Shown here: piece after piece, positions 49,568 through 61,732 of the stretch
Numbering within the stretch: position 1 is the stretch's first letter
Layout of the letters: the number at the start of each line of letters is the position of its first letter
Source: Bacteroidota bacterium
GTDB lineage: Bacteria > Bacteroidota > Bacteroidia > Bacteroidales > VadinHA17
NCBI GenBank assembly: GCA_012729475.1
Contig: JAAYDB010000003.1
Coordinates: 472-64,471 of the forward strand
DNA length: 64,000 bases
Direction of reading: 5' to 3'
Notes under the pieces: generated by a model
The model's input: only the letters and a program-made list of their open reading frames with translations
Database searches by the model: none
What the model was told of the DNA's origin: nothing
Translations under genes and position numbers: made by a program

Positions 49568-50188
49568 ATGGTCAGTGAATTAAAAAATACAGAAAAACTC
49601 CCGCTGGTGGAAGAATTCTTCAGCATACAGGGCGAAGGTTTTTTTTCAGGGAAAGCGGCCTGGTTTATAAGGCTTGGTGGCTGTGACATCGGCTGTAGAT
49701 GGTGTGATTCGCGGTTTACATGGGACCCGGGATTATTTCCTGCAGTGGAAACCGACAGGATCATTGAACATGCAATTAAATCAGGATCAGATTCTGTTGT
49801 TATAACGGGAGGAGAGCCTCTTTTATGGAATCTCGATCATTTATGTTCAGAACTCAGAAAAAACAAGATCAGAACTTTTCTTGAAACATCAGGAGCCCAT
49901 CCAATGAGCGGTATGTGGGACTGGATATGTTTGTCTCCAAAACAAAATATGCCTCCATTGGCTGAAAATTACCCTTTAGCCAATGAACTAAAAGTTATTA
50001 TTCAAAGTAAAACTGATTTCATTTGGGCAGAGAATAGCAGAAAACTGGCAGGGAAGAAGTGTAAACTCTATCTGCAACCTGAATGGAGGCAATTCGAACA
50101 AATTATTCCTGAAATCGTAGAATATGTAAAACAAAATAATATGTGGAGTATTTCTCTTCAGATTCACAAGTACATGCATATACCATAG
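49568..50188 (+). CDS. queE: 7-carboxy-7-deazaguanine synthase (radical SAM)
   Basis: 'SIQGEG', CxxxCxxC 'CDIGCRWCD', 'TGGEP' and 'LQIHK' motifs. Confidence 0.9.
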   Translation: MVSELKNTEKLPLVEEFFSIQGEGFFSGKAAWFIRLGGCDIGCRWCDSRFTWDPGLFPAVETDRIIEHAIKSGSDSVVITGGEPLLWNLDHLCSELRKNKIRTFLETSGAHPMSGMWDWICLSPKQNMPPLAENYPLANELKVIIQSKTDFIWAENSRKLAGKKCKLYLQPEWRQFEQIIPEIVEYVKQNNMWSISLQIHKYMHIP

Positions 50189-50192
50189 GCAA

Positions 50193-52136
50193 ATGATGCA
50201 AACGAAATACATATTTACTATCTTCATTTTCTCCTGTGTTCTATTATCAAAAATTGTATCACAGGACTTACATTCAAGGTCAAACAAAGCTTTAAAGGCA
50301 TATAATGATGGCTTGAGATCATACGAGTATGTGGATTATGAAAACGCGGAGATTTATTTTAAACTGGCTTTGTCGTATGATGAAAATTTTCTTGAATCGT
50401 ATATGATGCTTGGAGAATTATACAGCAGGCAGAATAAGTATGCTCCTGCTGTCGAAAATTATAAAACTGCTTTTAATATCGATTCTTCTTTTTACAGGCC
50501 TGCTTATTTTAATCTTGCCAATGCTGAGATGATGATAGAAGATTATTCCGGAGCACTCCTTCATTACAAAGCCTATCTCCGAAGTGATAAGACTTCTGAA
50601 AAAAACAGACTTCTTGCGATAAAGAACATAAAAAACTGTGAGTTTGCCATACAAGCTATACTGGAACCTGTTTCTTTCAATCCGGTAAGTGTTGGCAATA
50701 ATATTAATACAAAAAGTGATGAATACTGGCCTTCTATTACAGCCGACGGAAAGACTCTTATGTTTACAAGACAGGAGCTTATTGGGCATTATTCATTACC
50801 ATTCAGGACGGCACAGGAAGATTTTTATATCAGTTACAGGTCAGATGATGGGTGGACGCAGGCTGTAAATGCCGGAGCTCCTCTCAATACCAGTCAGAAT
50901 GAAGGAGCTCAAACCTTATCTTCCAGCGGTAATTACATGTTTTTTACAGCTTGTGACCGGCAAGGAGGATTTGGAAGCTGTGACATCTATTTCTCAGCTT
51001 ACAGGAATGGTAAATGGACAATACCGTACAATCTGGGGCCACCGATAAATACAAGCGCATGGGAATCAACACCTTCAGTGAGTGCTGATGGCTCTATGCT
51101 TTTCTTTTCCAGCAACAGACCCGGAGGCCTGGGAGGAAAAGATTTGTGGTATACTGTTTTGAATGAAAAAGGGATATGGTCAGAACCGGTTAATCTTGGT
51201 GAAATTATTAACACAGAGGGAGATGAAATGTCTCCGTTCATTCATTTCGATGGAAAAACACTCTATTTTGCGTCAGATGGCAGACCTGGTATGGGGGGCT
51301 TTGATATATGGATGAGCAGAATGAAGGATGATAGTACCTGGACTGAACCCCGGAATCTGGGATATCCCATCAATACAGCCAGTGATGATATGGGCCTGGT
51401 AATAGAGGCAAGCGGGCAAAATGCTTATTTTTCGTCAAAGCGTGACAATGAGAACAGGAAAGATATATTTTTCTTCAAACTTGATGAATCAGTAAGACCA
51501 AATGCTGTGGCCTATCTTAGCGGCACTGTAATTGATAAGGAAACAGGCAGATCCCTTATGGCTGAATATGAGTTGATCAATCTGTCTACAAATCGTGTGA
51601 CAATGAGAAATACGACAGATGAAAATGGCAATTTTCTGATATGTCTGCCCTCAGGATTTAATTACGGAATCAATATTTCAAACCCTGGTTATCTTTTTTA
51701 TTCTGAGAATTTTATGTTTGAAGGAGAACATTCGGTGATGGAGCCACTCATAAAGAAAATTTATCTTAATCCGCTTAAAGTTGGTGAGAAGATGCTTCTT
51801 TCAAATGTTTTTTATGAGATTGATTCATGGGAACTGAAAAAAGAATCTGTAGCTGAATTAAATAACCTTGTGGAATTACTTGCTTCAAATAAAGGCCTTA
51901 TTGTGGAAATAGGTGGACATACTGATTCAACCGGAACCGATGAACATAATCTGATATTATCAGAGAGAAGAGCATTGTCTGTGGTCGATTATCTCGTTAA
52001 TAACAAGATATCAGTGACAAGACTTACATATAAAGGCTATGGCAACACTTCTCCCATTGGTGACAATGTTACTTATGAAGGAAGAAGGATGAACAGGAGG
52101 ACTGAAGTTAAAATCACAGGAACGAATAAAGAATAA
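50193..52136 (+). CDS. OmpA family protein with TPR, PD40 and OmpA-C domains (PorE-like architecture)
   Basis: N-terminal TPR; repeated 'NLGxxINT' PD40 units; 'GHTDSTG...LSERRA...NRRTE'. Confidence 0.88.
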   Translation: MMQTKYIFTIFIFSCVLLSKIVSQDLHSRSNKALKAYNDGLRSYEYVDYENAEIYFKLALSYDENFLESYMMLGELYSRQNKYAPAVENYKTAFNIDSSFYRPAYFNLANAEMMIEDYSGALLHYKAYLRSDKTSEKNRLLAIKNIKNCEFAIQAILEPVSFNPVSVGNNINTKSDEYWPSITADGKTLMFTRQELIGHYSLPFRTAQEDFYISYRSDDGWTQAVNAGAPLNTSQNEGAQTLSSSGNYMFFTACDRQGGFGSCDIYFSAYRNGKWTIPYNLGPPINTSAWESTPSVSADGSMLFFSSNRPGGLGGKDLWYTVLNEKGIWSEPVNLGEIINTEGDEMSPFIHFDGKTLYFASDGRPGMGGFDIWMSRMKDDSTWTEPRNLGYPINTASDDMGLVIEASGQNAYFSSKRDNENRKDIFFFKLDESVRPNAVAYLSGTVIDKETGRSLMAEYELINLSTNRVTMRNTTDENGNFLICLPSGFNYGINISNPGYLFYSENFMFEGEHSVMEPLIKKIYLNPLKVGEKMLLSNVFYEIDSWELKKESVAELNNLVELLASNKGLIVEIGGHTDSTGTDEHNLILSERRALSVVDYLVNNKISVTRLTYKGYGNTSPIGDNVTYEGRRMNRRTEVKITGTNKE

Positions 52137-52164
52137 ATGGCCGTATACTGGTGATACGGCCATT
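52136..52164. terminator. Hairpin terminator between convergent genes
   Basis: AATGGCCGTAT-actggtg-ATACGGCCATT, 11-bp stem; T-rich tail on the minus strand. Confidence 0.7.
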
Positions 52165-52218
52165 CCGGTCTCATGCTAGAGGGTGAGACAGACATTGATA
52201 TTGCATGGAAAAAACTTA

Positions 52219-53043
52219 TCAGATAGCGATCGTGGAATTAAAATATTTATTTATAGATAAATCTGAACTATCTGCAACTTTCACAGGAATGGAAAAATAA
52301 ATCCCTGAACTGGTTAGTCCGTTGCATTCAATCCGGATAGATCCGTTAAGAACACTTATCAGTTTTCTGGCCAATATAATGTTAATGGCTGTAACTGTAT
52401 CATTATACTTCCCGAGTGATTGGTTAACATCCTCAGTATGAAGAAATTCCTTGCATTTAAAATATCCCTGACCGGAGTCCAGAACATAAAAAGTCATCTG
52501 GTTATCCCTGAAATAGTAACCAATTTTTATGTACCCCGATTTAGTATTATTCAATGCACTCTGAAAAAGACTACGAATAACCCTGAATACCCTGGCGGAA
52601 TCAATAATGATATCGACAGCTTCGCAAAAACTTGTTTCAGACACCAATTCGACATTTTTGTTGACTTCTTTCTTTAATATTTCCCTGAATTCAGAAAGAA
52701 GCTCATCAAGAAATTTATTGAGTTTGCAAATTTTGTAATTGGGTTTTGATTTCACTGTATCAATAATTGCTGAATCGCAAAAGTTATCAAATAGACCAAT
52801 TAATTGTTCACAGGAAGCCAGTATCTGGTTGGTGAATTCTTTTCGTTCTGTTTCATCACATCCATCCTGATTCATGAGAAATGAGAAAGCCACTATTGCA
52901 TTCATGTGTGTCCTCAATTCATGTGACATTCCTGCTAAAACTGTAGGACAATTGACCATAGTATTACCAAAATTATTATCCTGATCATTTACAGTATGAT
53001 CAACAGCATTCTTATCCACACTATTTTCAGGATACTTTTCCAT
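52219..53043 (-). CDS. Sensor-less histidine-kinase-like protein (HisKA plus degenerate HATPase)
   Basis: H-box 'MSHELRTHMNAI'; G1 'DSGQG'; N and G2 boxes degenerate. Confidence 0.75.
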   Translation of the reverse strand: MEKYPENSVDKNAVDHTVNDQDNNFGNTMVNCPTVLAGMSHELRTHMNAIVAFSFLMNQDGCDETERKEFTNQILASCEQLIGLFDNFCDSAIIDTVKSKPNYKICKLNKFLDELLSEFREILKKEVNKNVELVSETSFCEAVDIIIDSARVFRVIRSLFQSALNNTKSGYIKIGYYFRDNQMTFYVLDSGQGYFKCKEFLHTEDVNQSLGKYNDTVTAINIILARKLISVLNGSIRIECNGLTSSGIYFSIPVKVADSSDLSINKYFNSTIAI

Positions 53044-53091: not shown

Positions 53092-53853
53092 TTATTTGAT
53101 CTTTCTCAGGATTTTTCTGGCTTCGTTGCGATAAAGACTGCCGGAATTCTTTATGGTTTTAAGTTGATTAACAGCTTTCTCTTTTTCGTCTGTTTTGATG
53201 TAACAAAGAGCAAGATACCATTGAGCATCTTCTATGAAAAAGTTATCATTATCGTCTATCACCTCTGTAAAGGACCTCTGAGCTATAGGATAATTTTTCT
53301 GTTCAAAATTTGATACTCCATAGAGCATTCTTGATTCCATATAATGAGGATCGCTTGAGATAACTTTGCTAAAATAAACTGCAGCATTCCTGTAATCACT
53401 TACATTATAGTAATCGACAGCAGTTATGTAATCTGAATTTACATTTGTGACATCATCAAACGACCTGGACGGGGTGTTCGTCTGTATTTGGTATGTCGTA
53501 TAATAATCATTGAATAATTCATCAGATTGCACATTTCTGCCTTTGAATAGAACAAGGCTTCCGATAAGCATGAATCCTGCAATTACAGCAGCATACCTGA
53601 AAAAATGATTTTTCCCGGTATGTTTTTTCTGCGAAAATGTTGCGGCTTTTTTCTTTTCTATTTCTGAAAGTTTATTCCGCAACTGAAGTACATCACGGTT
53701 CCTGAGAACCATATCGGTATTTCTCCGGAGAGCTACTTCTTCCTGAAGCATCCTGTTGCCACTGAGTTCTTTCTCGAACCAGATCCTTTCAGCTTCATTC
53801 ATATCTCCGGCATTATACCTTTCAATGTAATAAGAAAAGTCAATTGTCTTCAT
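53092..53853 (-). CDS. Single-pass membrane TPR protein, probable anti-sigma factor
   Basis: N-terminal 'IERYNAGDMNEAERIWFEKEL' anti-sigma-like helices; TM 'YAAVIAGFMLIGSLVLF'; C-terminal TPRs ('AQWYLALCYIK'). Confidence 0.7.
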   Translation of the reverse strand: MKTIDFSYYIERYNAGDMNEAERIWFEKELSGNRMLQEEVALRRNTDMVLRNRDVLQLRNKLSEIEKKKAATFSQKKHTGKNHFFRYAAVIAGFMLIGSLVLFKGRNVQSDELFNDYYTTYQIQTNTPSRSFDDVTNVNSDYITAVDYYNVSDYRNAAVYFSKVISSDPHYMESRMLYGVSNFEQKNYPIAQRSFTEVIDDNDNFFIEDAQWYLALCYIKTDEKEKAVNQLKTIKNSGSLYRNEARKILRKIK

Positions 53854-54056
53854 AGTCCTTTATATATTATTATTTTAAGTATTCCATATCTAAGCAGCTA
53901 TAAATTAATTATATAGCTATAATTTATTTTGCAGTATAATATTATTATACGTATTTTTTTTCAGACTGTTTACGGTCTGTGAACTCAGAACTGCAAATAA
54001 ACCGGAAGTATCAGAAAATTATGCCTGTCAGAAAAGACAGATACTTTTTATTGGTG

Positions 54057-54218
54057 TCAGATTTTGATAGGTGGGTTACACGGTTTGACAATGGGCTCAG
54101 GAAGAAGTTCATCATGTTCGCCAGATCCTCCACGAACATTAATCATTTCTTTTGTTGAAAGAGCAAATTCAGTAAACATGTTTCTTGTCTTGTCGAAATT
54201 CAGGGTTCTTGTTTTCAT
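54057..54218 (-). CDS. Double-glycine-leader precursor peptide, 53 aa: MKTRTLNFDKTRNMFTEFALSTKEMINVRGG|SGEHDELLPEPIVKPCNPPIKI
   Basis: Translated by hand: ATG at 54218-54216, TGA at 54059-54057; 'LSxxEMxxVxGG' leader; A-rich 5' context; C39 exporter 4 kb away. Confidence 0.85.
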   Translation of the reverse strand: MKTRTLNFDKTRNMFTEFALSTKEMINVRGGSGEHDELLPEPIVKPCNPPIKI

Positions 54219-54467
54219 AATTTTGGGTTTAATTATTGTTACTAATTCAGGGAAATTTCTTTTAGTTACAATACTACATGTCGTATACCCTTAATTTGTG
54301 ACACAAAAAAAGTTAAAAAAATTTAAAATCAAAAAAAATATTCAGAAAATCAGTTACTTATATATAAAATAAAGTATTAAAAGGAAGAAAATTTGATTTT
54401 AATGTTAAATTTTGAGAAATTTCGATTGTAAAAACGTATACAGTCATTGTACATACTCTGCAATATT

Positions 54468-57400
54468 ATGCAATTCCGAACACTCTTCTGCTTTTTTCAG
54501 GTTTTTATGTGTTTAATGACGTTTTCTGTTTTTCAGGCTGATGCTTCTGTTTCTTCAAAACAACATTTCAGATTATTACCTGATGAAGAGAACACAGAAA
54601 ATTATCATACAGAAGCTATCGGGAAAATAAATAAACGGATAATTAGTCTTGTTTCGCTTAATGACAGAGATGGGTTGCTTAATCTTGCCGATTCATTACG
54701 TATGGCGATTGACAATGAGGTTACTGACAGTGCGACAACAGCAGAGTACTACTATTATATTGGGGTCTGTTATTTATTAACAGGCAGGTATGCTAAGGCA
54801 ATATCAGGTCTGAAACAATCTTTAACCCTGAAGAAGGCTCTTGACATAGTTGATGATAATTATCTTAAAGCCATATACAATATTGGTGTTTCCTATAATT
54901 TTCTGGGTGATTATATTCAGGTGGGTAATTACATGCTTGATTATATCAATCTGGCAACTGATTATAGCAGTTCTGCTGAAAGGGAAATTGCCGAAGCGTA
55001 TTCAGCACTTATAGGCACAGCAGTGGAATGTAAAGACTTTGAGAATTTCACTGACTATACAAATAGGATACAGAGTATTCTGAGCAACAACCGGAATACC
55101 ATAACAGGAGATGATCTGATACGTCTTTATATCAATATAGGTGTTGGTTTTATAAGAATGGGTGATTATTCAAAGAGCAGGGTTTATCTTGAACAGGCAG
55201 AATCGTTATTCCGGAATAGCAGAAAGGAAGCAGATGCAGATTATATCAACCTTATCAATAGTCTTGCAGTTACTTACAGTTATCTTGGTTTGCCGGAAAA
55301 AGAAGAAGAATACTATAGAAAAGGCATAGAGTTTGCTCTAAAGGAAAATTCTTTCCTTGGTTTCAATATGGTCAACAGTTATGCTATTAAGCTAGGTAAC
55401 TCAGGCAATGCAGACAGAGGAGAAAAATTGTTGGCTCAAATGGTTGAAAGAGCAGGTCACTGGTATGGTACAGACTCCCGGTACTATATTGAAGTACTTA
55501 ATAATTACGCAATTTATCTTCTTTCTTATAAAAAAGACATTGAAAATGCTATTAGATTTTTCCGTATCTGTAGCGCTTATCTGGATAAAAACAAAGAAGA
55601 TAGCGGTTTGCGCTTTCCGGTAATGAATGGTTATGCCAAGGCTTTATACAATGGGGGGCAGCCTGAAAAAGCCCTGGAAAAGATTCAGGAGTTGCTTTTC
55701 CAGGGCTCTGATACCCGTGAAGATGAAGGCTTATGGATCAACCCTTCTCCTGAATCATTGAATGCAGACAGGTCAGTGTTGACAACCCTTATGCTGAAAT
55801 ATGAGATATTACGCAATATGTATTCTTCGTCAGAGGATACAGACATTCTCATAGCAGCAGCCAACACATCTGAACTTATTGTCTTTGTAGTGGATAATAT
55901 AAGAATAAATATAAGTGAAGAAGAGAGCAGGTTAATACTCGGTGACCGTTACAGAGATGCATATCTGAGAGCTATACAGGATTTTGAATTATGTTATAGA
56001 ACAACGGGAGAACAGGAATATCTTGAGAAGGCTTTCACCTACAGCGAAAAGAGTAAGGTTGCAGGCTTGCTGGCAGCTACAAGAGAGTTAAATGCCATAC
56101 AGCTCAATATTCCGGAAACAACAGCACAGTTTGAAAAACAACTACAGAGAGAAATAGGCTTTTATAATGCCAGGATCGCTGCAGAAAATGAAAAAAGTAA
56201 TCCGGACATGGCAGCTGTCAATCTGTGGAAAGAAAAACTTCTGCAGACAATCAGTGTTCGTGATTCACTTGTCTTAACATTCAGAAGAGATTATCCGGGT
56301 TATTTCACTATGAAATACCATATCCATACCCCGGATATGAATGATATACCTTCGGTTATTGGTCGAAATTACAATTATCTGAGTTATGTTATTTCAGATA
56401 AAATGTTATATATATTTGTTGTGAACCGCAGACATAAAGAACTATTATCTTTTCATACTGATTCTCTTTTTGCGGAAAAAATTGCAGAGTTTCAGAATCT
56501 GTTGTCTTCTGCAGAGCTTCATACGGATGCAAGACTGAAATTTGAAAACTACAATCTACTGGGCCATCATCTTTATAAGACGCTGATAGAACCAGTGGAG
56601 AAGTATCTGATTTCAGATAATCTGCTTATTTCGCCTGACAATTTCCTTTCTTACCTTCCTTTTGAAACTCTTCTTACTTCCGTTTACACCGGTAATGAAA
56701 TACTGTACAGGAAACTGAAATATCTCATGAATAATTATAATATATCTTATTCATATTCAGCAACATTTCTCCAGGAAGTTTTAACCAGGCAGTATAGGAA
56801 CAGCCATAGTCTTGTGGCATTTGCCCCTGTTTACAAAAAAGCTCTTCATCTTGATTCCATTATGTCGCTGCGACATAGCACCAGCAGAGTGTTCTATGAT
56901 CTGCCTTATGCCAGGCAGGAAGCCCAATATATATCCGGTCTTTCAGGAGGCAGTGTATATCTTAACGATGAGGCCATGGAGTCTGTATTTAAAGAGAAAG
57001 CAGGAGAATATGATATCATTCACCTGGCAATGCACACTTATTTGAATGATGTCAATCCTATGAATTCAGCAATGATTTTCATGCAGGATGCTGATCCGTC
57101 AGAAGACGGCTTGCTTCATACTTATGAGGTTTATGGCATTCAGCTAAAAGCACGGATGGTAGTCTTAAGTTCCTGCAATACCGGAACTGGAAAACTGTCG
57201 AAAGGAGAGGGGATTTTAAGTCTGGCAAGAGGCTTTCTGTATTCCGGAAGTCAATCAGTGGTAATGTCAATGTGGGATATTGATGATAAATCCGGTACTG
57301 ACATAATGAAATCTTTTTATGACAATCTGAGTAAGGGTATGTCAAAAAGCGCAGCATTAAGGAAAGCAAGGTCACAATATCTGAAAAATGCCAGCCAGCT

Positions 57401-57548
57401 GAAATCACATCCCTACTTCTGGTCAAGTCTTGTTGTGTATGGGGCTAATGATTCTGTTTTTACATCAAAAAGAAATATCCTGGTATCGATCCCGTTACTA
57501 CTTATCATATCATTAACAGTTTATTTTTTGTATCGGAGATACTCCTGA
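54468..57548 (+). CDS. TPR-CHAT (caspase/HetF-like) protease with signal peptide and C-terminal TM anchor
   Basis: TPR array; 'AFTYSEKSK'; 'SPDNFLSYLPFETL'; catalytic His in 'HLAMH' and Cys in 'VLSSCNTG'; 'SMWDIDD'; 'HPYFWS'; C-terminal hydrophobic helix followed by RR. Confidence 0.9.
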   Translation: MQFRTLFCFFQVFMCLMTFSVFQADASVSSKQHFRLLPDEENTENYHTEAIGKINKRIISLVSLNDRDGLLNLADSLRMAIDNEVTDSATTAEYYYYIGVCYLLTGRYAKAISGLKQSLTLKKALDIVDDNYLKAIYNIGVSYNFLGDYIQVGNYMLDYINLATDYSSSAEREIAEAYSALIGTAVECKDFENFTDYTNRIQSILSNNRNTITGDDLIRLYINIGVGFIRMGDYSKSRVYLEQAESLFRNSRKEADADYINLINSLAVTYSYLGLPEKEEEYYRKGIEFALKENSFLGFNMVNSYAIKLGNSGNADRGEKLLAQMVERAGHWYGTDSRYYIEVLNNYAIYLLSYKKDIENAIRFFRICSAYLDKNKEDSGLRFPVMNGYAKALYNGGQPEKALEKIQELLFQGSDTREDEGLWINPSPESLNADRSVLTTLMLKYEILRNMYSSSEDTDILIAAANTSELIVFVVDNIRINISEEESRLILGDRYRDAYLRAIQDFELCYRTTGEQEYLEKAFTYSEKSKVAGLLAATRELNAIQLNIPETTAQFEKQLQREIGFYNARIAAENEKSNPDMAAVNLWKEKLLQTISVRDSLVLTFRRDYPGYFTMKYHIHTPDMNDIPSVIGRNYNYLSYVISDKMLYIFVVNRRHKELLSFHTDSLFAEKIAEFQNLLSSAELHTDARLKFENYNLLGHHLYKTLIEPVEKYLISDNLLISPDNFLSYLPFETLLTSVYTGNEILYRKLKYLMNNYNISYSYSATFLQEVLTRQYRNSHSLVAFAPVYKKALHLDSIMSLRHSTSRVFYDLPYARQEAQYISGLSGGSVYLNDEAMESVFKEKAGEYDIIHLAMHTYLNDVNPMNSAMIFMQDADPSEDGLLHTYEVYGIQLKARMVVLSSCNTGTGKLSKGEGILSLARGFLYSGSQSVVMSMWDIDDKSGTDIMKSFYDNLSKGMSKSAALRKARSQYLKNASQLKSHPYFWSSLVVYGANDSVFTSKRNILVSIPLLLIISLTVYFLYRRYS

Positions 57549-58090
57549 TATTCAGGGTCTTTTGCTACTATTTTCATGAGAGCTTCTTTTGAAAGGTATT
57601 TCTTTCTCCTGGCATAAGTTTCATTCTTCAGATTCATCCTTTGTGCTATTTCCTCATAAGTGAATCCTTCATAAAAAAGATTTAATACGGTTTGTAAATC
57701 GGGTTTAAGCTGTTTAAATGCCCTGCTTATTATTCTTTCAAACATCCTTTCATTATCTTCATCAGGATTGTTATTCTCATCCATGAGGTCAGGTTCCAGC
57801 TCTATAGTCTTCCTTTTTTTCCTAAGCTGTGAATTCCATATATTTCTGACTATTCCAAAAAAGTAACCTTTCAGATCAGTGGTAAGATTCAGGGTATCAC
57901 CCGTGATCTGATTATATAAAACAATCACAGAGTCCTGGAATACGTCTGAAACATCATCAGGAGAACCGTTGTTTTTAAGGATGTGCTTACTAACCATTTG
58001 ATAATAATTATCATAAAGCCAGTTCAGCGTTTTGTCATCCTGGTTTCGTATTCCTTCTATTATCTTGCTATCTGAAACTCTCTTAAACAA
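57521..58090 (-). CDS. ECF-type RNA polymerase sigma factor
   Basis: TTG start; region 2 'DDVSDVFQDSVIVLY...LKGYFFGIVRNIW'; region 4 'LNLFYEGFTYEEIAQRM'. Confidence 0.88.
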   Translation of the reverse strand: MFKRVSDSKIIEGIRNQDDKTLNWLYDNYYQMVSKHILKNNGSPDDVSDVFQDSVIVLYNQITGDTLNLTTDLKGYFFGIVRNIWNSQLRKKRKTIELEPDLMDENNNPDEDNERMFERIISRAFKQLKPDLQTVLNLFYEGFTYEEIAQRMNLKNETYARRKKYLSKEALMKIVAKDPEYQEYLRYKK

Positions 58091-58247: not shown

Positions 58248-60434
58248 ATGTCATTCCCTTTTGTAAAACAACCTGATGCTATGGATTGCGGGCCTGCATG
58301 CCTCAAAATGATAGCCGGGTTCTATAAGAAATCTTTTTCCTTCGAAACAATCCGGAAAAAATGTTATATAACAAGAGAAGGAGTCTCTTTTCTGGGACTA
58401 TCAGAAGCAGCTGATAATCTGGGCTTTCGTACTCTCGGTGTAAAGATAACTTTTGAAATGCTGGCAGAGAAAATTCCTTTGCCCTGTATTATCCATTGGC
58501 GTCAAAAGCATTTTGTTGTGGTCTATAAAATAAAAAATGACAAAATCTGGGTTGCCGATCCTGCCTTTGGTCTGATCAAATATAATAAGGAAGAATTTGT
58601 AAAAAACTGGACATCAACTTTGTCTGATGGACAACCAGTAGGTTTAGTTCTTATTGTGGAACCAACTCCTGCTTTGTTCGAAAAAGAAAATGAAGAGGAG
58701 AGAACAGATGGATTCAGGTTTTTATTTAAATATTTCCGTCTTTATAAAAAATACTTTTTTCAACTGATACTTGGTTTATTAATAGGGAGTGTAATACAAT
58801 TACTGATACCTTTTCTTACTCAGTCGATTATTGATATAGGGCTGAATAACAGCGATCTCAATTTTATTTATCTTATCCTTTTTGCTCAATTAGCCCTGGT
58901 TATAGGAAGGATGTCTGTTGAATTTATAAGAGGGTGGTTGCTTCTCCACATCGGTACGCGTGTAAATGTGTCTGTTATTTCAGGCTTCCTTCATAAACTT
59001 ATGTCGCTGCCTGTTGCATTTTTTGATACAAAGCTGACAGGAGATATCCTTCAAAGAATAGAAGATAATAAACGTATTGAGGAATTTCTTACATCAGCTT
59101 CTCTGAGCATACTGTTCTCATTTTTTAACCTCTTCATTTTTGGAATAGTCCTTGCAATCTACAATATTAAAATACTGATAATTTTTATAACCGGTTCGCT
59201 TTTGTATATTACATGGGTGTCTTTATTTATGAAGTCACGGGCGAGGATTGATCATCAGCGATTTAAGCAGATGTCGGAAGCCAATAGCAAACTGATTACC
59301 ATTATTAACGGAATGCAGGAGATCAAGCTGACACAGAGTGAAACCAGTAAACGCTGGGATTGGGAAAATCTCCAGGCATCTCTATTCAGTGTGAAAACGA
59401 AGGGGTTGGGAATAGTACAGTATCAGACTGCCGGAGCTACTTTTATTAATGAAGTTACTAATATACTAATCACTATTGTTGCTGCTACCGCTGTTTTAAA
59501 AGGCAATATGACTCTCGGTATGATGCTTGCCGTGCAATTCATTATCGGTCAGCTGAACGTGCCTGTCAGTCAGATCATAGGGTTCTTCAGATTATCACAG
59601 GATGCTAAGATGAGTCTTGACAGACTCTCAGAGATCCACTATATGGACGAAGAAGAGATAAATACGGAAATGAAAGTCAGAAAACTGCCTGAAAAAAAGG
59701 ATATTTTCATAAACAATGTATCATATCAGTACGAAGGTCCTCATTCTCCTTTTGCTCTTAAAGATGTAGACCTATATATTGAAGACAGAAAAAATACGGC
59801 TATTGTTGGTGTCAGTGGAAGCGGAAAAACAACACTCCTGAAATTGCTGCTTGGCTTTTATCAACCCATAAATGGTGAAATTCTTGTTGGGGATACGAAA
59901 CTTTCAGGGCTGAGTTTAAAAATATGGAGAGAAAAAACAGGAGCAGTAATGCAGGATGGCTTTCTTTTTCCGGAATCTATTGCACGTAACATAGCTCCGG
60001 GAACAGAAGATATCGATCAGGAAAAACTGACAAAAGCTGTGGAAGTTGCCAACATAAAGAGCTTTATCGAATCATTGCCTTTGGGATATAATACCAAAAT
60101 AGGTATTAACGGACATGGATTGAGCGAAGGCCAGAAACAAAGACTTCTCATTGCCAGAATCATATATAAAGATCCGGATATTATTATTTTTGATGAAGCG
60201 ACAAATTCACTTGATGCAAATAATGAAAAGGTAATAGTGGAAAATCTTTCTTCCTGTTTCGAAGGTAAAACAGTGATTATCGTTGCTCACCGATTGAGTA
60301 CTGTTAAGAACGCCGACAAAATTGTAGTTCTCGATGGCGGGCGTGTAATTGAAACAGGTAATCACAATTCTCTGATAGAAATGAGAGGCGCCTACTATAA
60401 TCTTGTAAAAAATCAACTGGAGCTTGGTAATTAA
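58248..60434 (+). CDS. Peptidase-containing ABC transporter (C39 PCAT, SunT/LagD-like)
   Basis: C39 'QPDAMDCGPACL', 'HFVV' and 'ADP'; TM domain; Walker A 'GVSGSGKT'; 'LSEGQKQR'; 'FDEAT'; 'AHRL'. Confidence 0.95.
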   Translation: MSFPFVKQPDAMDCGPACLKMIAGFYKKSFSFETIRKKCYITREGVSFLGLSEAADNLGFRTLGVKITFEMLAEKIPLPCIIHWRQKHFVVVYKIKNDKIWVADPAFGLIKYNKEEFVKNWTSTLSDGQPVGLVLIVEPTPALFEKENEEERTDGFRFLFKYFRLYKKYFFQLILGLLIGSVIQLLIPFLTQSIIDIGLNNSDLNFIYLILFAQLALVIGRMSVEFIRGWLLLHIGTRVNVSVISGFLHKLMSLPVAFFDTKLTGDILQRIEDNKRIEEFLTSASLSILFSFFNLFIFGIVLAIYNIKILIIFITGSLLYITWVSLFMKSRARIDHQRFKQMSEANSKLITIINGMQEIKLTQSETSKRWDWENLQASLFSVKTKGLGIVQYQTAGATFINEVTNILITIVAATAVLKGNMTLGMMLAVQFIIGQLNVPVSQIIGFFRLSQDAKMSLDRLSEIHYMDEEEINTEMKVRKLPEKKDIFINNVSYQYEGPHSPFALKDVDLYIEDRKNTAIVGVSGSGKTTLLKLLLGFYQPINGEILVGDTKLSGLSLKIWREKTGAVMQDGFLFPESIARNIAPGTEDIDQEKLTKAVEVANIKSFIESLPLGYNTKIGINGHGLSEGQKQRLLIARIIYKDPDIIIFDEATNSLDANNEKVIVENLSSCFEGKTVIIVAHRLSTVKNADKIVVLDGGRVIETGNHNSLIEMRGAYYNLVKNQLELGN

Positions 60435-60442
60435 AAGCAGCA

Positions 60443-61732
60443 ATGAAAAACAGGGTAAATGAAATAATATATTCCGAACCTGTTCAGGAAATAATATCAA
60501 ATCCTCCTGCAAAAATAATCAGATGGGGAACTGCCCTTATTGCATTTGTTTTTATTCTTCTTATAACTCTTTCCTGGATAATAAAATATCCCGATGTTGT
60601 TCCTGCACCTGTCGAGATCACCACAGTTAACCCTCCGGTTACTCTTGCAACCAAAATAACAGGACGAATTAATAAGCTTATGGTTGAAGATGGTGAAAAA
60701 GTAATGCCCGGACAGTTGCTTGCAGTTATGGAAACAGCTGCTTCATTGTCTGATATAGAGACTCTTAAGTCTATAGTTGATACAATTTCCAAACCTTCTA
60801 TTCTTTTTCCGGAATCCATCCCTCTGTTTTCACAACTGGGAGAGATACAGAGTTTTTATTCATCTTTTATGAAAGCTCTTGCAGATTATAATTCTTACGT
60901 TAATAACGATTATTATGGCAGTAAAATAGTCTCAATAACAGAAGAAATAACAGCTCTTCAGGAGTATATAGAAAGAATGAAGGCCAAAGAACGAATTATC
61001 ACAGATAATCTTAAACTGGAATATAATAAATATATTAGAGATTCAGGTCTTTATGTTAACAAAGTGTTTTCTGAGAGTGAATTTGAACTATCAAAAAAGT
61101 CATATAACAACAGTAAGCTGGAACTCCAACAGGTTCGACTCGAGCAATCTCAAAATATTATTTCTCTGGCTGAGAAAAACCAGTTGCTTCAGGATTACCG
61201 GATAAAGAGGGAAGAGGAAAGGCAAAATCTGGCTTCACTCCTGGATGAGACATACCTTAATCTGAAAGCTCAGATTAATATCTGGAGAAATAATTATTTG
61301 CTTATAACACCTGTTGAGGGGACAGTTTCCTTTACAAAGTTCTGGAGTGAAAATCAGTCTGTGGTTAAAGATGAACCTGTAATCAGTATAGTACCTCTCG
61401 AGCCAGGTGATTTCGTAGGAAGAATTAATCTCAGAATGCAGCGTTCCGGAAAAGTTACACCAGGTCAGACAGTCAATATTAAACTTAGTGGCTATCCTTA
61501 TCTGGAATATGGTATGGTAAGAGGTGTTGTGAAATCCAAATCGCTGGTCCCGGCCAGTGATGCCTATATAATTGAAATAGACTTCCCTTCCGGTCTTACA
61601 ACTCTTTACGGGAAAAAGCTTGATTTTACCCAGAATATGCAGGGAACAGCCGAGATCCTCACAGATAACCTCAGACTACTGCAAAAAGTTATAAATCCTT
61701 TTAGATATCTGGTGACTAAAAACAGGACCTGA
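60443..61732 (+). CDS. HlyD family membrane fusion protein
   Basis: 'SEPVQEII..PP..IIRWG'; TM; coiled coil; 'YPYLEYG'; 8 nt after the PCAT. Confidence 0.92.
   Translation: MKNRVNEIIYSEPVQEIISNPPAKIIRWGTALIAFVFILLITLSWIIKYPDVVPAPVEITTVNPPVTLATKITGRINKLMVEDGEKVMPGQLLAVMETAASLSDIETLKSIVDTISKPSILFPESIPLFSQLGEIQSFYSSFMKALADYNSYVNNDYYGSKIVSITEEITALQEYIERMKAKERIITDNLKLEYNKYIRDSGLYVNKVFSESEFELSKKSYNNSKLELQQVRLEQSQNIISLAEKNQLLQDYRIKREEERQNLASLLDETYLNLKAQINIWRNNYLLITPVEGTVSFTKFWSENQSVVKDEPVISIVPLEPGDFVGRINLRMQRSGKVTPGQTVNIKLSGYPYLEYGMVRGVVKSKSLVPASDAYIIEIDFPSGLTTLYGKKLDFTQNMQGTAEILTDNLRLLQKVINPFRYLVTKNRT

Follow-up and report, generated by a model that had tools for sequence, protein, structure and literature searches.

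Introduction

The closest described relative of the system presented here is DdvA/DdvS, in which a periplasmic TPR-CHAT protein fused to an anti-sigma factor has been proposed to cleave itself in response to an unknown signal (PMC11506125). The present analysis concerns a 64,000-nucleotide stretch of DNA from a Bacteroidales bacterium of the VadinHA17 lineage (assembly GCA_012729475.1, contig JAAYDB010000003.1, positions 472 to 64,471; hereafter the window) and, within it, a minus-strand gene of 53 codons encoding a double-glycine (GG) precursor peptide. Around this gene lie those for a TPR-CHAT protease (CHAT protein), a sigma factor of the extracytoplasmic function (ECF) type, a transmembrane (TM) protein with a TPR domain (TM-TPR protein), a soluble protein resembling histidine kinases (HK-like protein), a peptidase-containing ABC transporter (PCAT) and a HlyD-family adaptor. 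It appears moderately probable that the peptide is a linear, unmodified, proline-rich signal, dedicated to the extracytoplasmic control of a protease-gated sigma switch, and its receptor is probably of a new kind.

Like DdvA, the window system couples an ECF sigma factor to a periplasmic TPR-CHAT protein of the separase/craspase type, with a His-Cys dyad and a proposed site-1 cut that would free the sigma factor, and, when the fold of the window CHAT protein is compared with solved structures, DdvA (8rot) comes out near the top (rank 8, E 2.5e-13). However, DdvA unites a cytoplasmic zinc anti-sigma domain, a TM helix and the periplasmic TPR-CHAT part in one polypeptide, whereas the window encodes two separate membrane proteins, a split between anti-sigma-like and TPR-CHAT proteins which is also found in other families. 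Moreover, the window protease is anchored by a C-terminal helix and shows no sequence-level match to DdvA; in fact, phmmer searches of PDB sequences with the CHAT and TM-TPR proteins returned generic TPR matches only, and neither DdvA nor Csx29. The window cassette also carries a dedicated GG peptide and an exporter, while the signal of DdvA is unknown, and no target is visible in the window beyond the peptide operon, whereas DdvA controls a CBASS/CRISPR island. DdvA is the one studied TPR-CHAT-gated anti-sigma factor, its activating signal being unknown, and the window cassette would supply a probable ligand, which makes the proposed mechanism of CHAT as a site-1 protease directly testable in vitro.

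In Craspase, the type III-E system of the TPR-CHAT protein Csx29, Csx30 and a RpoE-like sigma factor, a regulated TPR-CHAT protease cuts a partner of an ECF-type sigma factor (PMC10028731), as is proposed for the window. Structures of Csx29 are the best fold matches of the window CHAT protein (E 3e-14). Craspase is cytoplasmic and activated by RNA, whereas the window system is predicted to be periplasmic and membrane-anchored, and has no CRISPR genes. Two further systems share parts of this logic. In the DegS-RseA-sigmaE pathway of E. coli, a free C-terminal peptide motif binds the peptide-recognition domain of the periplasmic site-1 protease, which then cuts the anti-sigma factor; DegS is a serine protease that uses a PDZ domain and senses misfolded porins, while the window would employ a caspase-like Cys protease, a TPR groove and an encoded, exported peptide. 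In the separase complexes with securin and SCC1, an extended partner lies in a long TPR-like superhelix and either controls the caspase-like domain at the C-terminus or serves as its substrate. Separase is a eukaryotic, cytoplasmic protein with large protein partners, whereas the partner in the window would be an exported peptide of 15-22 amino acids (aa).

From the side of the peptide, the nearest counterparts are the streptococcal pheromones ComC and BlpC, which, with their PCATs ComA and BlpA, are also GG precursors exported by a C39-ABC transporter and feed back on the circuit of the producer (PMC7595303). The sensors of these pheromones are membrane histidine kinases, and the bacteria Gram-positive, whereas for the window a protease receptor in a Gram-negative periplasm and an ECF output are predicted. 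Bacteroidetocins, in turn, are Bacteroidales peptides with a GG leader and a PCAT; they have a leader of 15-16 aa, a mature toxin of 42-48 aa with four Cys and a charge of +2 to +6, and adjacent genes for a thiol oxidoreductase and a TM protein (PMC6671954). The peptides described here have instead a leader of 24-31 aa and a core of 15-22 aa with 0-1 Cys and a charge of -2 to 0, and no oxidoreductase gene was seen among the seven neighbors scanned. A search of the open full-text literature (subscription journals and supplements lying outside it) returned no description of this cassette and no dedicated peptide signaling system of Bacteroidota, the DdvA and Craspase papers being the only relevant ones.

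Bacteroidota dominate guts, sediments and digesters, and the cassette is a testable candidate with a defined ligand, a linear peptide of 15-22 aa accessible to synthesis, and a defined receptor surface and promoter read-out. If the proposal is correct, a caspase-like protease with a TPR groove would be a new receptor class in bacterial peptide sensing, and many "bacteriocin-like" GG peptides of Bacteroidales would need to be re-read as signals. Two such cassettes, with a separate peptide in each, can be present in a single genome.

The Peptide Gene and Its Conservation

The gene occupies positions 54057-54218 of the minus strand (stop codon included), as described in the initial annotation, a reading of the sequence alone, which had also placed it beneath one spurious plus-strand open reading frame (ORF). 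The overlap is there and involves two plus-strand ORFs, 53979-54158 (59 aa) and 54064-54294 (76 aa). The leader (residues 1-31, 54126-54218) ends in VRGG, its last residues being FALSTKEMINVRGG (EMINVRGG), with Leu at -12, Met at -7 and Val at -4 ahead of the GG. This spacing, typical of C39 leaders and first noticed in the single sequence, holds across 22 aligned peptides (alignment A1), in which L20 (-12), M25 (-7), V28 (-4), G30 and G31 never vary, with E24 (-8) nearly invariant. The same pattern (GG; hydrophobic residues at -4, -7 and -12; an acidic residue at about -8) recurs in 119 database sequences, and the leader, 24-31 aa long in the family, has the consensus ..EEMIxVRGG.

The predicted mature core (residues 32-53, 54060-54125) is SGEHDELLPEPIVKPCNPPIKI, a 22-aa sequence with five Pro, one Cys and a net charge of -2, acidic at its start, rich in Pro and hydrophobic at its end. 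The length, the five Pro and the Cys had all been pointed out before, and they are correct for the window; within the family, however, the Cys is missing from the other 21 peptides of the genus set, and the usual core is 15-17 aa. In fact, among 121 peptides (the 120 database matches listed plus the window), cores of 15 aa (65), 16 aa (33) and 17 aa (21) prevail, with 22 aa in the window only and 41 aa in one read-through, and relative to the family the window core is extended at its N-terminus. Its last 13 residues or so are the conserved part and follow the pattern D/E-P-I-x-K-P-x-x-P-P-V/I-K-I-COOH; P49 is invariant and P50 nearly invariant in the 22 peptides, three residues ahead of the C-terminus. 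A conserved leader and a PPxxI end enclosing a variable middle had been anticipated, and this is the arrangement found, the endings in the 121 peptides being PPVKI (45), PPIKI (27), PPIII (18) and minor variants. Overall, the cores have 15-22 aa, 0-1 Cys, 3-5 Pro and a net charge of -2 to 0, and no Cys, Ser or Thr is conserved in them, in agreement with the earlier view that they are of neither the bacteriocin nor the lanthipeptide type.

Of 24 genomes from the same genus, 21 contain a homologous stop-free frame of 45-57 aa; the protein search of whole genomes that located these frames returned no peptide homologue in 16 genomes from other families of the order. In the 20 genus loci compared, the gene always lies at the same syntenic place; the flanking housekeeping genes of the genus are syntenic as well, so that the genus alone proves no functional link. 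A wider set was obtained by scanning GTDB genomes with the TM-TPR protein (alignment A2), and the best 80 of the 350 relatives found, all from uncultured Bacteroidales metagenome-assembled genomes (MAGs), were kept as loci. The peptide gene is present in 77 of these, 76 recognized by the parser and one (L123, with HGG) by eye; two of the remaining loci (L114, L121) are interrupted by contig ends and the third (L105) has lost the ORF. Furthermore, when candidates from a collection of 5.8 billion proteins were compared with a profile built on the 22 peptides, 863 of 910 matched it (E <= 0.01); among the 120 matches listed, the names given are all "hypothetical protein", no Pfam domain occurs and the named sources are MAGs of Bacteroidales or Bacteroidia. 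The ratio pN/pS over all pairs is 0.52, with a saturated pS of 0.60. Some loci hold tandem copies of the gene with slightly different cores, namely two in L021 (9524-9837), two in L032 (9818-10199) and four in L175 (6440-7361). The 53-codon ORF is a real, conserved, selected and expressed gene, and its product represents a new family of GG-leader peptides.

The active product would not be the linear core if the gene encoded a precursor of the TIGR04149 type, from which a radical-SAM enzyme would make a RiPP, a peptide of ribosomal origin altered after translation. TIGR04149 (GG_sam_targ_CFB) is indeed the only family matched by the peptide (E 0.098), and a radical-SAM ORF is located 3.9 kb away (49568-50188). 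However, the match amounts to 12.6 bits, below the cut-off of 25, and is confined to the leader region; none of the seven proteins of the cluster is a radical-SAM protein, the ORF in question belongs to a genus-specific flank absent from the cassettes of other families, and the core offers no conserved Cys, Ser or Thr. A RiPP of this kind is therefore very unlikely. The radical-SAM ORF itself encodes 206 aa, with its best matches in QueE families (77.7-107 bits against cut-offs of 200-300, the 107 bits falling short of 200) and a sole SPASM-type match to ScmF (19.3 bits against a cut-off of 400).

Promoter and Transcription

A promoter-like block, identified by its conservation, precedes the gene on the minus strand (54275-54303); it reads TGTCACAAA-N-CGACATGTA, with the -35-like element at 54298-54303 and the -10-like element at 54275-54283. 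The block is present in all 21 genus loci as a T-run, TGTCACAAA(A), 9-11 nucleotides (nt) and C-GACATGT(A), and in 75 of 77 upstream regions. With a 42.6-bit matrix (73 unique sites), the peptide promoter is the sole site above 12 bits in the 2.97-Mb genome, where the exact pattern has a single occurrence. On the other side of the gene, 16 nt past the stop codon, a terminator-like hairpin lies at 54024-54041 (minus strand). The terminator scan that located it gave two sites, the same hairpin on either strand, against 0.1 expected from shuffles, and most genus loci have a hairpin at the same place, although with different stem sequences.

Evidence of expression comes from four metatranscriptomic runs belonging to four studies of bioreactor and anaerobic-digester samples (X4-X7). 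Each contains one contig of 1.8-2.4 kb which matches without mismatches from 52000-52492 up to 54259, 54238, 54254 and 54252, respectively, with k-mer depths of 52, 45, 12 and 55. The four independent assemblies thus end 15-45 nt downstream of the -10-like box, and the contigs pass through the hairpin. In the same runs, the CHAT, ECF, PCAT and HlyD genes are represented only by fragments of 158-579 nt (bins 0-5x, single contigs 2-7x), and the region 54338-55005 has no RNA contig at all, although contigs cannot prove that transcription is absent. Assembled RNA contigs do not strictly give strand, ends or levels; a depth contrast of about tenfold within one locus is, on the other hand, hard to explain as DNA carry-over. 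These data are read as transcription of the peptide, TM-TPR and HK-like genes from the conserved promoter, far above their neighbors and with the hairpin read through. Two of the runs (X6, X7) contain an extra contig whose match stops at 54156, where 32-67 unlike letters follow, probably from a related strain with a different leader or upstream region.

A common transcript also raises the question of whether the ORF is merely a regulatory leader for the TM-TPR and HK-like genes, or not translated at all. The same RNA contigs span both the ORF and the TM-TPR gene, which begins 200 nt further downstream, past the hairpin. In L105 (9600-10010) the promoter block is kept and, the peptide ORF being absent, leads straight into the TM-TPR gene, a natural arrangement that could be a "listener only" or a loss variant; since the promoter and the downstream genes persist there, these genes can do without the ORF, which does not show that the ORF is untranslated elsewhere. 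Against a leader role, it is the amino acid sequence and not only the RNA that is conserved (pN/pS 0.52, with saturated pS); the product has a complete GG leader with a cognate exporter close by; the gene is repeated in tandem in L021, L032 and L175; and no Rfam family matches within 53800-54500. A mere leader ORF is accordingly the least credible of the explanations weighed here, and highly unlikely.

The Predicted Receptor

The initial annotation had pictured the core as an extended ligand for a TPR groove, naming no particular TPR protein, and a structural model places it in just such a groove. Three chains were co-folded with unpaired alignments (A3, A4, A5): residues 35-700 of the CHAT protein, residues 106-253 of the TM-TPR protein and residues 24-53 of the peptide. 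The ipSAE was 0.75 (0.76, 0.75 and 0.74 in the single runs) against 0.01 for the best of three controls, at least 77% of the contacts were common to the runs, and the partner pLDDT was at least 58. Of 80 solved complexes, 58 pass the threshold used, as do 2 of 110 mismatched pairs, counts that apply only roughly, since the alignments used here and the presence of three chains differ from the calibration.

All confident contacts in the model join residues 38-53 of the peptide to residues 62-398 of the CHAT protein, within the concave groove of its N-terminal TPR superhelix and with the periodicity of the repeats, and none involves the TM-TPR protein. Peptide residues 51-52 are placed at CHAT residues 107-152 (K141, Y144, N145, V148) and residues 44-47 at 190-268, while the N-terminal part of the core points to the later repeats, towards the protease domain, itself outside the co-fold. 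The contact set includes a ladder of Asn residues which, in 64 sequences, are conserved at N145 (97%), N268 (92%), N271 (97%), N307 (98%), N310 (91%) and N353 (84%) and interleaved with highly variable positions. This combination would fit a groove that grips the backbone of the peptide and reads its side chains. The model therefore supports a peptide lying in the groove of the CHAT protease and not on the small membrane TPR protein. A control in which the CHAT chain was replaced, leaving the peptide with the TM-TPR protein, scored 0.01, which is neither support for nor evidence against binding to the latter.

A second line of evidence is the co-divergence of the core with the TPR modules, analyzed in 50 loci with all parts complete after removal of the PCAT/HlyD distance as a proxy for phylogeny. 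Core distance follows the TPR region of the CHAT protein (partial r 0.30, permutation p 0.001) and the periplasmic domain of the TM-TPR protein (partial r 0.30, p 0.001), and weakly the CHAT domain (0.14, p 0.03); it is uncorrelated with the cytoplasmic part of the TM-TPR protein (0.11), the HK-like protein (-0.14), the ECF sigma factor (0.07) and the C39 domain (-0.06). The leader shows the opposite behavior, its distance tracking the HK-like, ECF and C39 sequences. Two pairs of loci whose PCATs are 5.6% apart illustrate the trend: in L112 and L116 the CHAT proteins differ by 33% and the 15-aa cores at several positions, while in L083 and L089 the CHAT proteins differ by 15% and the cores are identical. 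Rate variation shared by exposed domains can mimic such a mirror-tree signal, so that the co-divergence is suggestive and not proof.

The same switch could use the peptide in another way, either through binding to the periplasmic domain of the TM-TPR protein or with the peptide acting on the CHAT protease in the manner of securin, as a pseudosubstrate or inhibitor, which would make the loop homeostatic instead of self-amplifying. The core tracks the periplasmic TM-TPR domain as strongly as the CHAT TPR region (0.30 each); the peptide gene immediately precedes the TM-TPR gene, both in the genus of the window and in L032, L033, L035, L040 and L041; and the structures resembling the TM-TPR fold include TPR domains with C-terminal peptides bound (RPAP3, Sti1). 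For the inhibitor variant, the fold matches of the CHAT protein include the separase-securin and separase-SCC1 complexes, the N-terminus of the peptide points to the protease domain in the co-fold, and the cores open with acidic residues, after which comes D/E-P. On the other hand, with both TPR proteins present all confident contacts fall on the CHAT protein, the peptide bears no sequence likeness to the TM-TPR linker, and sequence does not tell activation from inhibition. Such a role seems possible but rather doubtful.

The Cassette Beyond the Genus

Across the order, the peptide profile has weaker matches in 15 of 301 genomes, representing 11 of 208 genera. Through peptide-like ORFs, 12 loci were collected, 11 of them from other families, with different gene orders and flanks. 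All encode GG-leader peptides with short, acidic, Pro-rich cores, and beside the peptide gene they contain those for a TPR-CHAT protein (9), a TM-TPR protein (9), an ECF sigma factor (9, that is, 8 plus L036), a PCAT (7) and an HK-like protein (5). As for the three loci without a CHAT gene, a contig end interrupts L033 and L034 at the peptide, and L039 gave no match. The cassette thus also occurs, differently ordered, in further families of the Bacteroidales.

The genome of the window itself has a second, diverged cassette on another contig (C17, locus L180, 3345-9541), with genes for a full HK (425 aa), an ECF sigma factor, a TM-TPR protein (309 aa), a TPR-CHAT protein and a GG peptide. The latter gene lies upstream of the CHAT gene on the same strand, and the contig ends right after it; the core is DGEGSEGGSEPIIIIPPGV, ending in ...SEPIIIIPPGV.

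Homologues of the TPR-CHAT protein are far more widespread, being found (E <= 1e-30) in 150 of 301 genomes of the order (106 of 208 genera). The loci collected from the CHAT side (L135-L179) have the same layout of signal segment, TPR, CHAT domain and anchor, usually with TM-TPR and ECF genes alongside.

The peptide genes of other families are preceded by a G-T/C-T/C-A-C-C-TTTT box, which lies some 70-100 nt ahead of the ATG. In L179, L037 and L036 the same GGTTACCTTTT box of 12-14 nt stands before both the peptide gene and the ECF gene, a length reached by 0-3 of 200 shuffles, and in L179 an identical -10-like GGAATATA also follows the box at both genes. ECF sigma factors commonly transcribe their own operon, and a box shared with the ECF gene consequently points to the peptide gene as part of the regulon of the sigma factor.

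Proposed Circuit and Its Alternatives

From these elements a circuit can be proposed. The peptide gene would be transcribed from its own promoter of the alternative-sigma type, with read-through into the TM-TPR and HK-like genes; its transcription is observed, whereas the identity of the sigma factor that drives it is deduced. The C39 domain of the neighboring exporter would then cut the 31-aa leader after G30-G31, and the 22-aa core would leave the cell with the help of HlyD, as expected from what is known of these families. The last 16 residues or so of the core, with the free carboxy-terminus ...PPIKI, are predicted by the co-fold to lie extended in the Asn-lined TPR groove of the CHAT protein. 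Occupancy of the groove may alter the activity of the His863/Cys910 protease on the TM-TPR protein, a candidate anti-sigma factor by analogy; the likely target would be its conserved, disordered juxtamembrane linker, and the cut, by analogy with DdvA and DegS/RseA, would play the part of site-1 cleavage in regulated intramembrane proteolysis. The freed ECF sigma factor would finally transcribe the peptide operon, closing a feedback loop in which the anti-sigma-like and kinase-like genes are co-induced. The loop would be positive and quorum-like if the peptide activates the protease, or homeostatic if it blocks the protease as securin does. A more specific version, in which the exported 15-22-aa peptide is a pheromone whose receptor, neither a kinase nor a transcription factor, is the periplasmic caspase-like protease that it gates, the only strong promoter of the ECF sigma factor drives the peptide operon, and core and groove co-diversify quickly among close relatives in the manner of pherotypes, is put forward tentatively, as plausible rather than probable.

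Several observations weigh against a dedicated signal of this kind. As for the interface, the contact residues are not more conserved overall (0.57 against 0.54, p 0.18); mutual information with peptide positions -2 and -6 to -10 places 0-2 of the top 25 CHAT columns among the contacts, with a background of 6%; and the core shows a partial r of 0.08 with the contact columns given the non-contact columns. Conservation and covariation of the contacts being null, it is the fold model that speaks for the interface, and only that. As for the regulation, the promoter matrix finds no second site above 12 bits in the 2.97 Mb of the genome, so that no output regulon is visible. In the genus of the window, the ECF and PCAT genes carry TAnnTTTG-like boxes upstream. 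TAnnTTTG is the housekeeping-type consensus of Bacteroidetes, and the box of the ECF gene is thus of the housekeeping type and unlike that of the peptide gene. The box shared between peptide and ECF genes is significant in three of nine loci, from two lineages, and not in the other six, for which start codons were guessed. The link between sigma factor and promoter in this genus would accordingly follow by analogy with other families. Moreover, the N-terminus of the TM-TPR protein was recognized as an anti-sigma domain neither by Pfam, in 86 TM-TPR proteins, nor by Foldseek, with the model, and the cluster has no gene for an outer-membrane channel, although an exported peptide of 1.6-2.4 kDa would have to reach a periplasmic receptor.

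The distribution of the peptide points in the same direction. A GG peptide, sought with the A1 profile or by its pattern, lies within 1.5 kb in only 8 of the 29 best loci collected from the CHAT side (2 of 29 in a reversed-sequence control) and was not found in the other 21; with flanks of about 8 kb it is present in only 2 of 20 loci, both with a PCAT, and was not found in 18, while a TM-TPR gene is present in 19 and an ECF gene in 13. Gaps of 1.7-2 kb upstream of several CHAT genes contain no convincing small ORF on the one strand read. As most loci with CHAT, ECF and TM-TPR genes have no peptide, the trio is a widespread core, to which peptide and exporter are an add-on in a subset, and the switch does not need the peptide.

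It is at this point that an antimicrobial has to be considered, that is, a class II-type bacteriocin or Pro-rich peptide exported by the PCAT, with the sigma and CHAT genes regulating its production or adjoining by chance. Bacteriocin export classically relies on the combination of a GG leader with a PCAT and HlyD, and Bacteroidales are known to make GG-leader toxins (PMC6671954). Furthermore, with most genomes having the switch without the peptide and no other promoter target in the genome, the peptide could be an output and not an input. However, the cores are short (15-22 aa), uncharged or slightly acidic (-2 to 0) and devoid of a conserved Cys, and with 3-5 Pro each they cannot form an amphipathic helix. 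No immunity-like or oxidoreductase gene was seen among the seven neighbors scanned, and throughout the genus the locus belongs to the fixed core and not to a variable island. Moreover, the core co-diverges with periplasmic TPR modules and is predicted to dock in one of them. Given its size, its charge, the lack of Cys, the fixed locus and the co-divergence, a bacteriocin is unlikely.

Neighboring Genes

The TPR-CHAT protease gene (54447-57548, plus strand; 1033 aa; Pfam CHAT, 1e-58) is divergent from the peptide gene. Its start is probably the ATG at 54468 and not the TTG at 54447, since at least 90% of 71 homologues share M8. The protein consists of a hydrophobic N-terminal signal or TM segment, about 17 helical-repeat pairs, the CHAT domain and a C-terminal TM anchor followed by RRYS, and by the positive-inside rule its bulk would be periplasmic. 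The dyad H863 and C910 is invariant in 71 sequences. The AF2 model (pLDDT 85.6, pTM 0.82) has its best fold matches in Craspase Csx29, human and yeast separase, and DdvA (E 3e-14 to 4e-10), including the separase-securin and separase-SCC1 complexes.

The ECF-type sigma gene (57521-58090, minus strand; 189 aa, TTG start; TIGR02937 with 68 bits against a cut-off of 42.9) converges with the CHAT gene, and their 3' ends overlap by 28 nt (57521-57548), as in most genus loci. Beyond it lies the PCAT gene (58248-60434, plus strand), whose product combines a C39 peptidase (Pfam Peptidase_C39, 6.8e-38) with ABC_membrane and ABC_tran domains and also matches TIGR01193 (3.2e-126, below its cut-off), followed by the gene for the HlyD-family periplasmic adaptor (60443-61732, plus strand; Pfam HlyD_3, and TIGR01843 with 2.4e-24, below the cut-off). 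The neighboring PCAT on which the initial annotation had relied for cleavage is thus an intact C39-ABC exporter which, together with HlyD, lies 4 kb from the peptide gene. A PCAT is present in 66 of the 80 loci found with the TM-TPR protein, several of which are truncated.

The gene of the anti-sigma-like TM-TPR protein (53092-53853, minus strand; 253 aa) begins about 200 nt downstream of the peptide ORF. The AF2 model of the protein (pLDDT 84) shows four cytoplasmic helices, a TM helix at residues 89-102 (hydropathy windows beginning at residues 84-88), a disordered linker and a periplasmic domain of three TPRs. The linker contains the conserved motif Y121...R130-S131 (Y..Y/R-S), the fold of the TPR domain resembles the TPR domain of YbgF, BamD and peptide-binding TPR domains, and no Cys/His zinc motif is present. 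The gene is not adjacent to the sigma gene in the window, whereas in other families a TM-TPR paralogue directly follows or overlaps the ECF gene. Several loci, such as L032 and L040, have two paralogues, one after the ECF gene and one after the peptide gene; of the two kinds, only the second occurs in the window.

The gene of the HK-like soluble protein (52219-53043, minus strand; 274 aa), recognized by HisKA and a weak HATPase_c match, is present in 73 of the 80 loci found with the TM-TPR protein and lies on the RNA contigs of the peptide gene; speculatively, it may be the route of the circuit to other genes. The protein keeps an H-box (SHELRT) and a DxGxG-like box, with HATPase_c at E 0.066 and no second glycine-rich lid motif seen, and may be a degenerate kinase.

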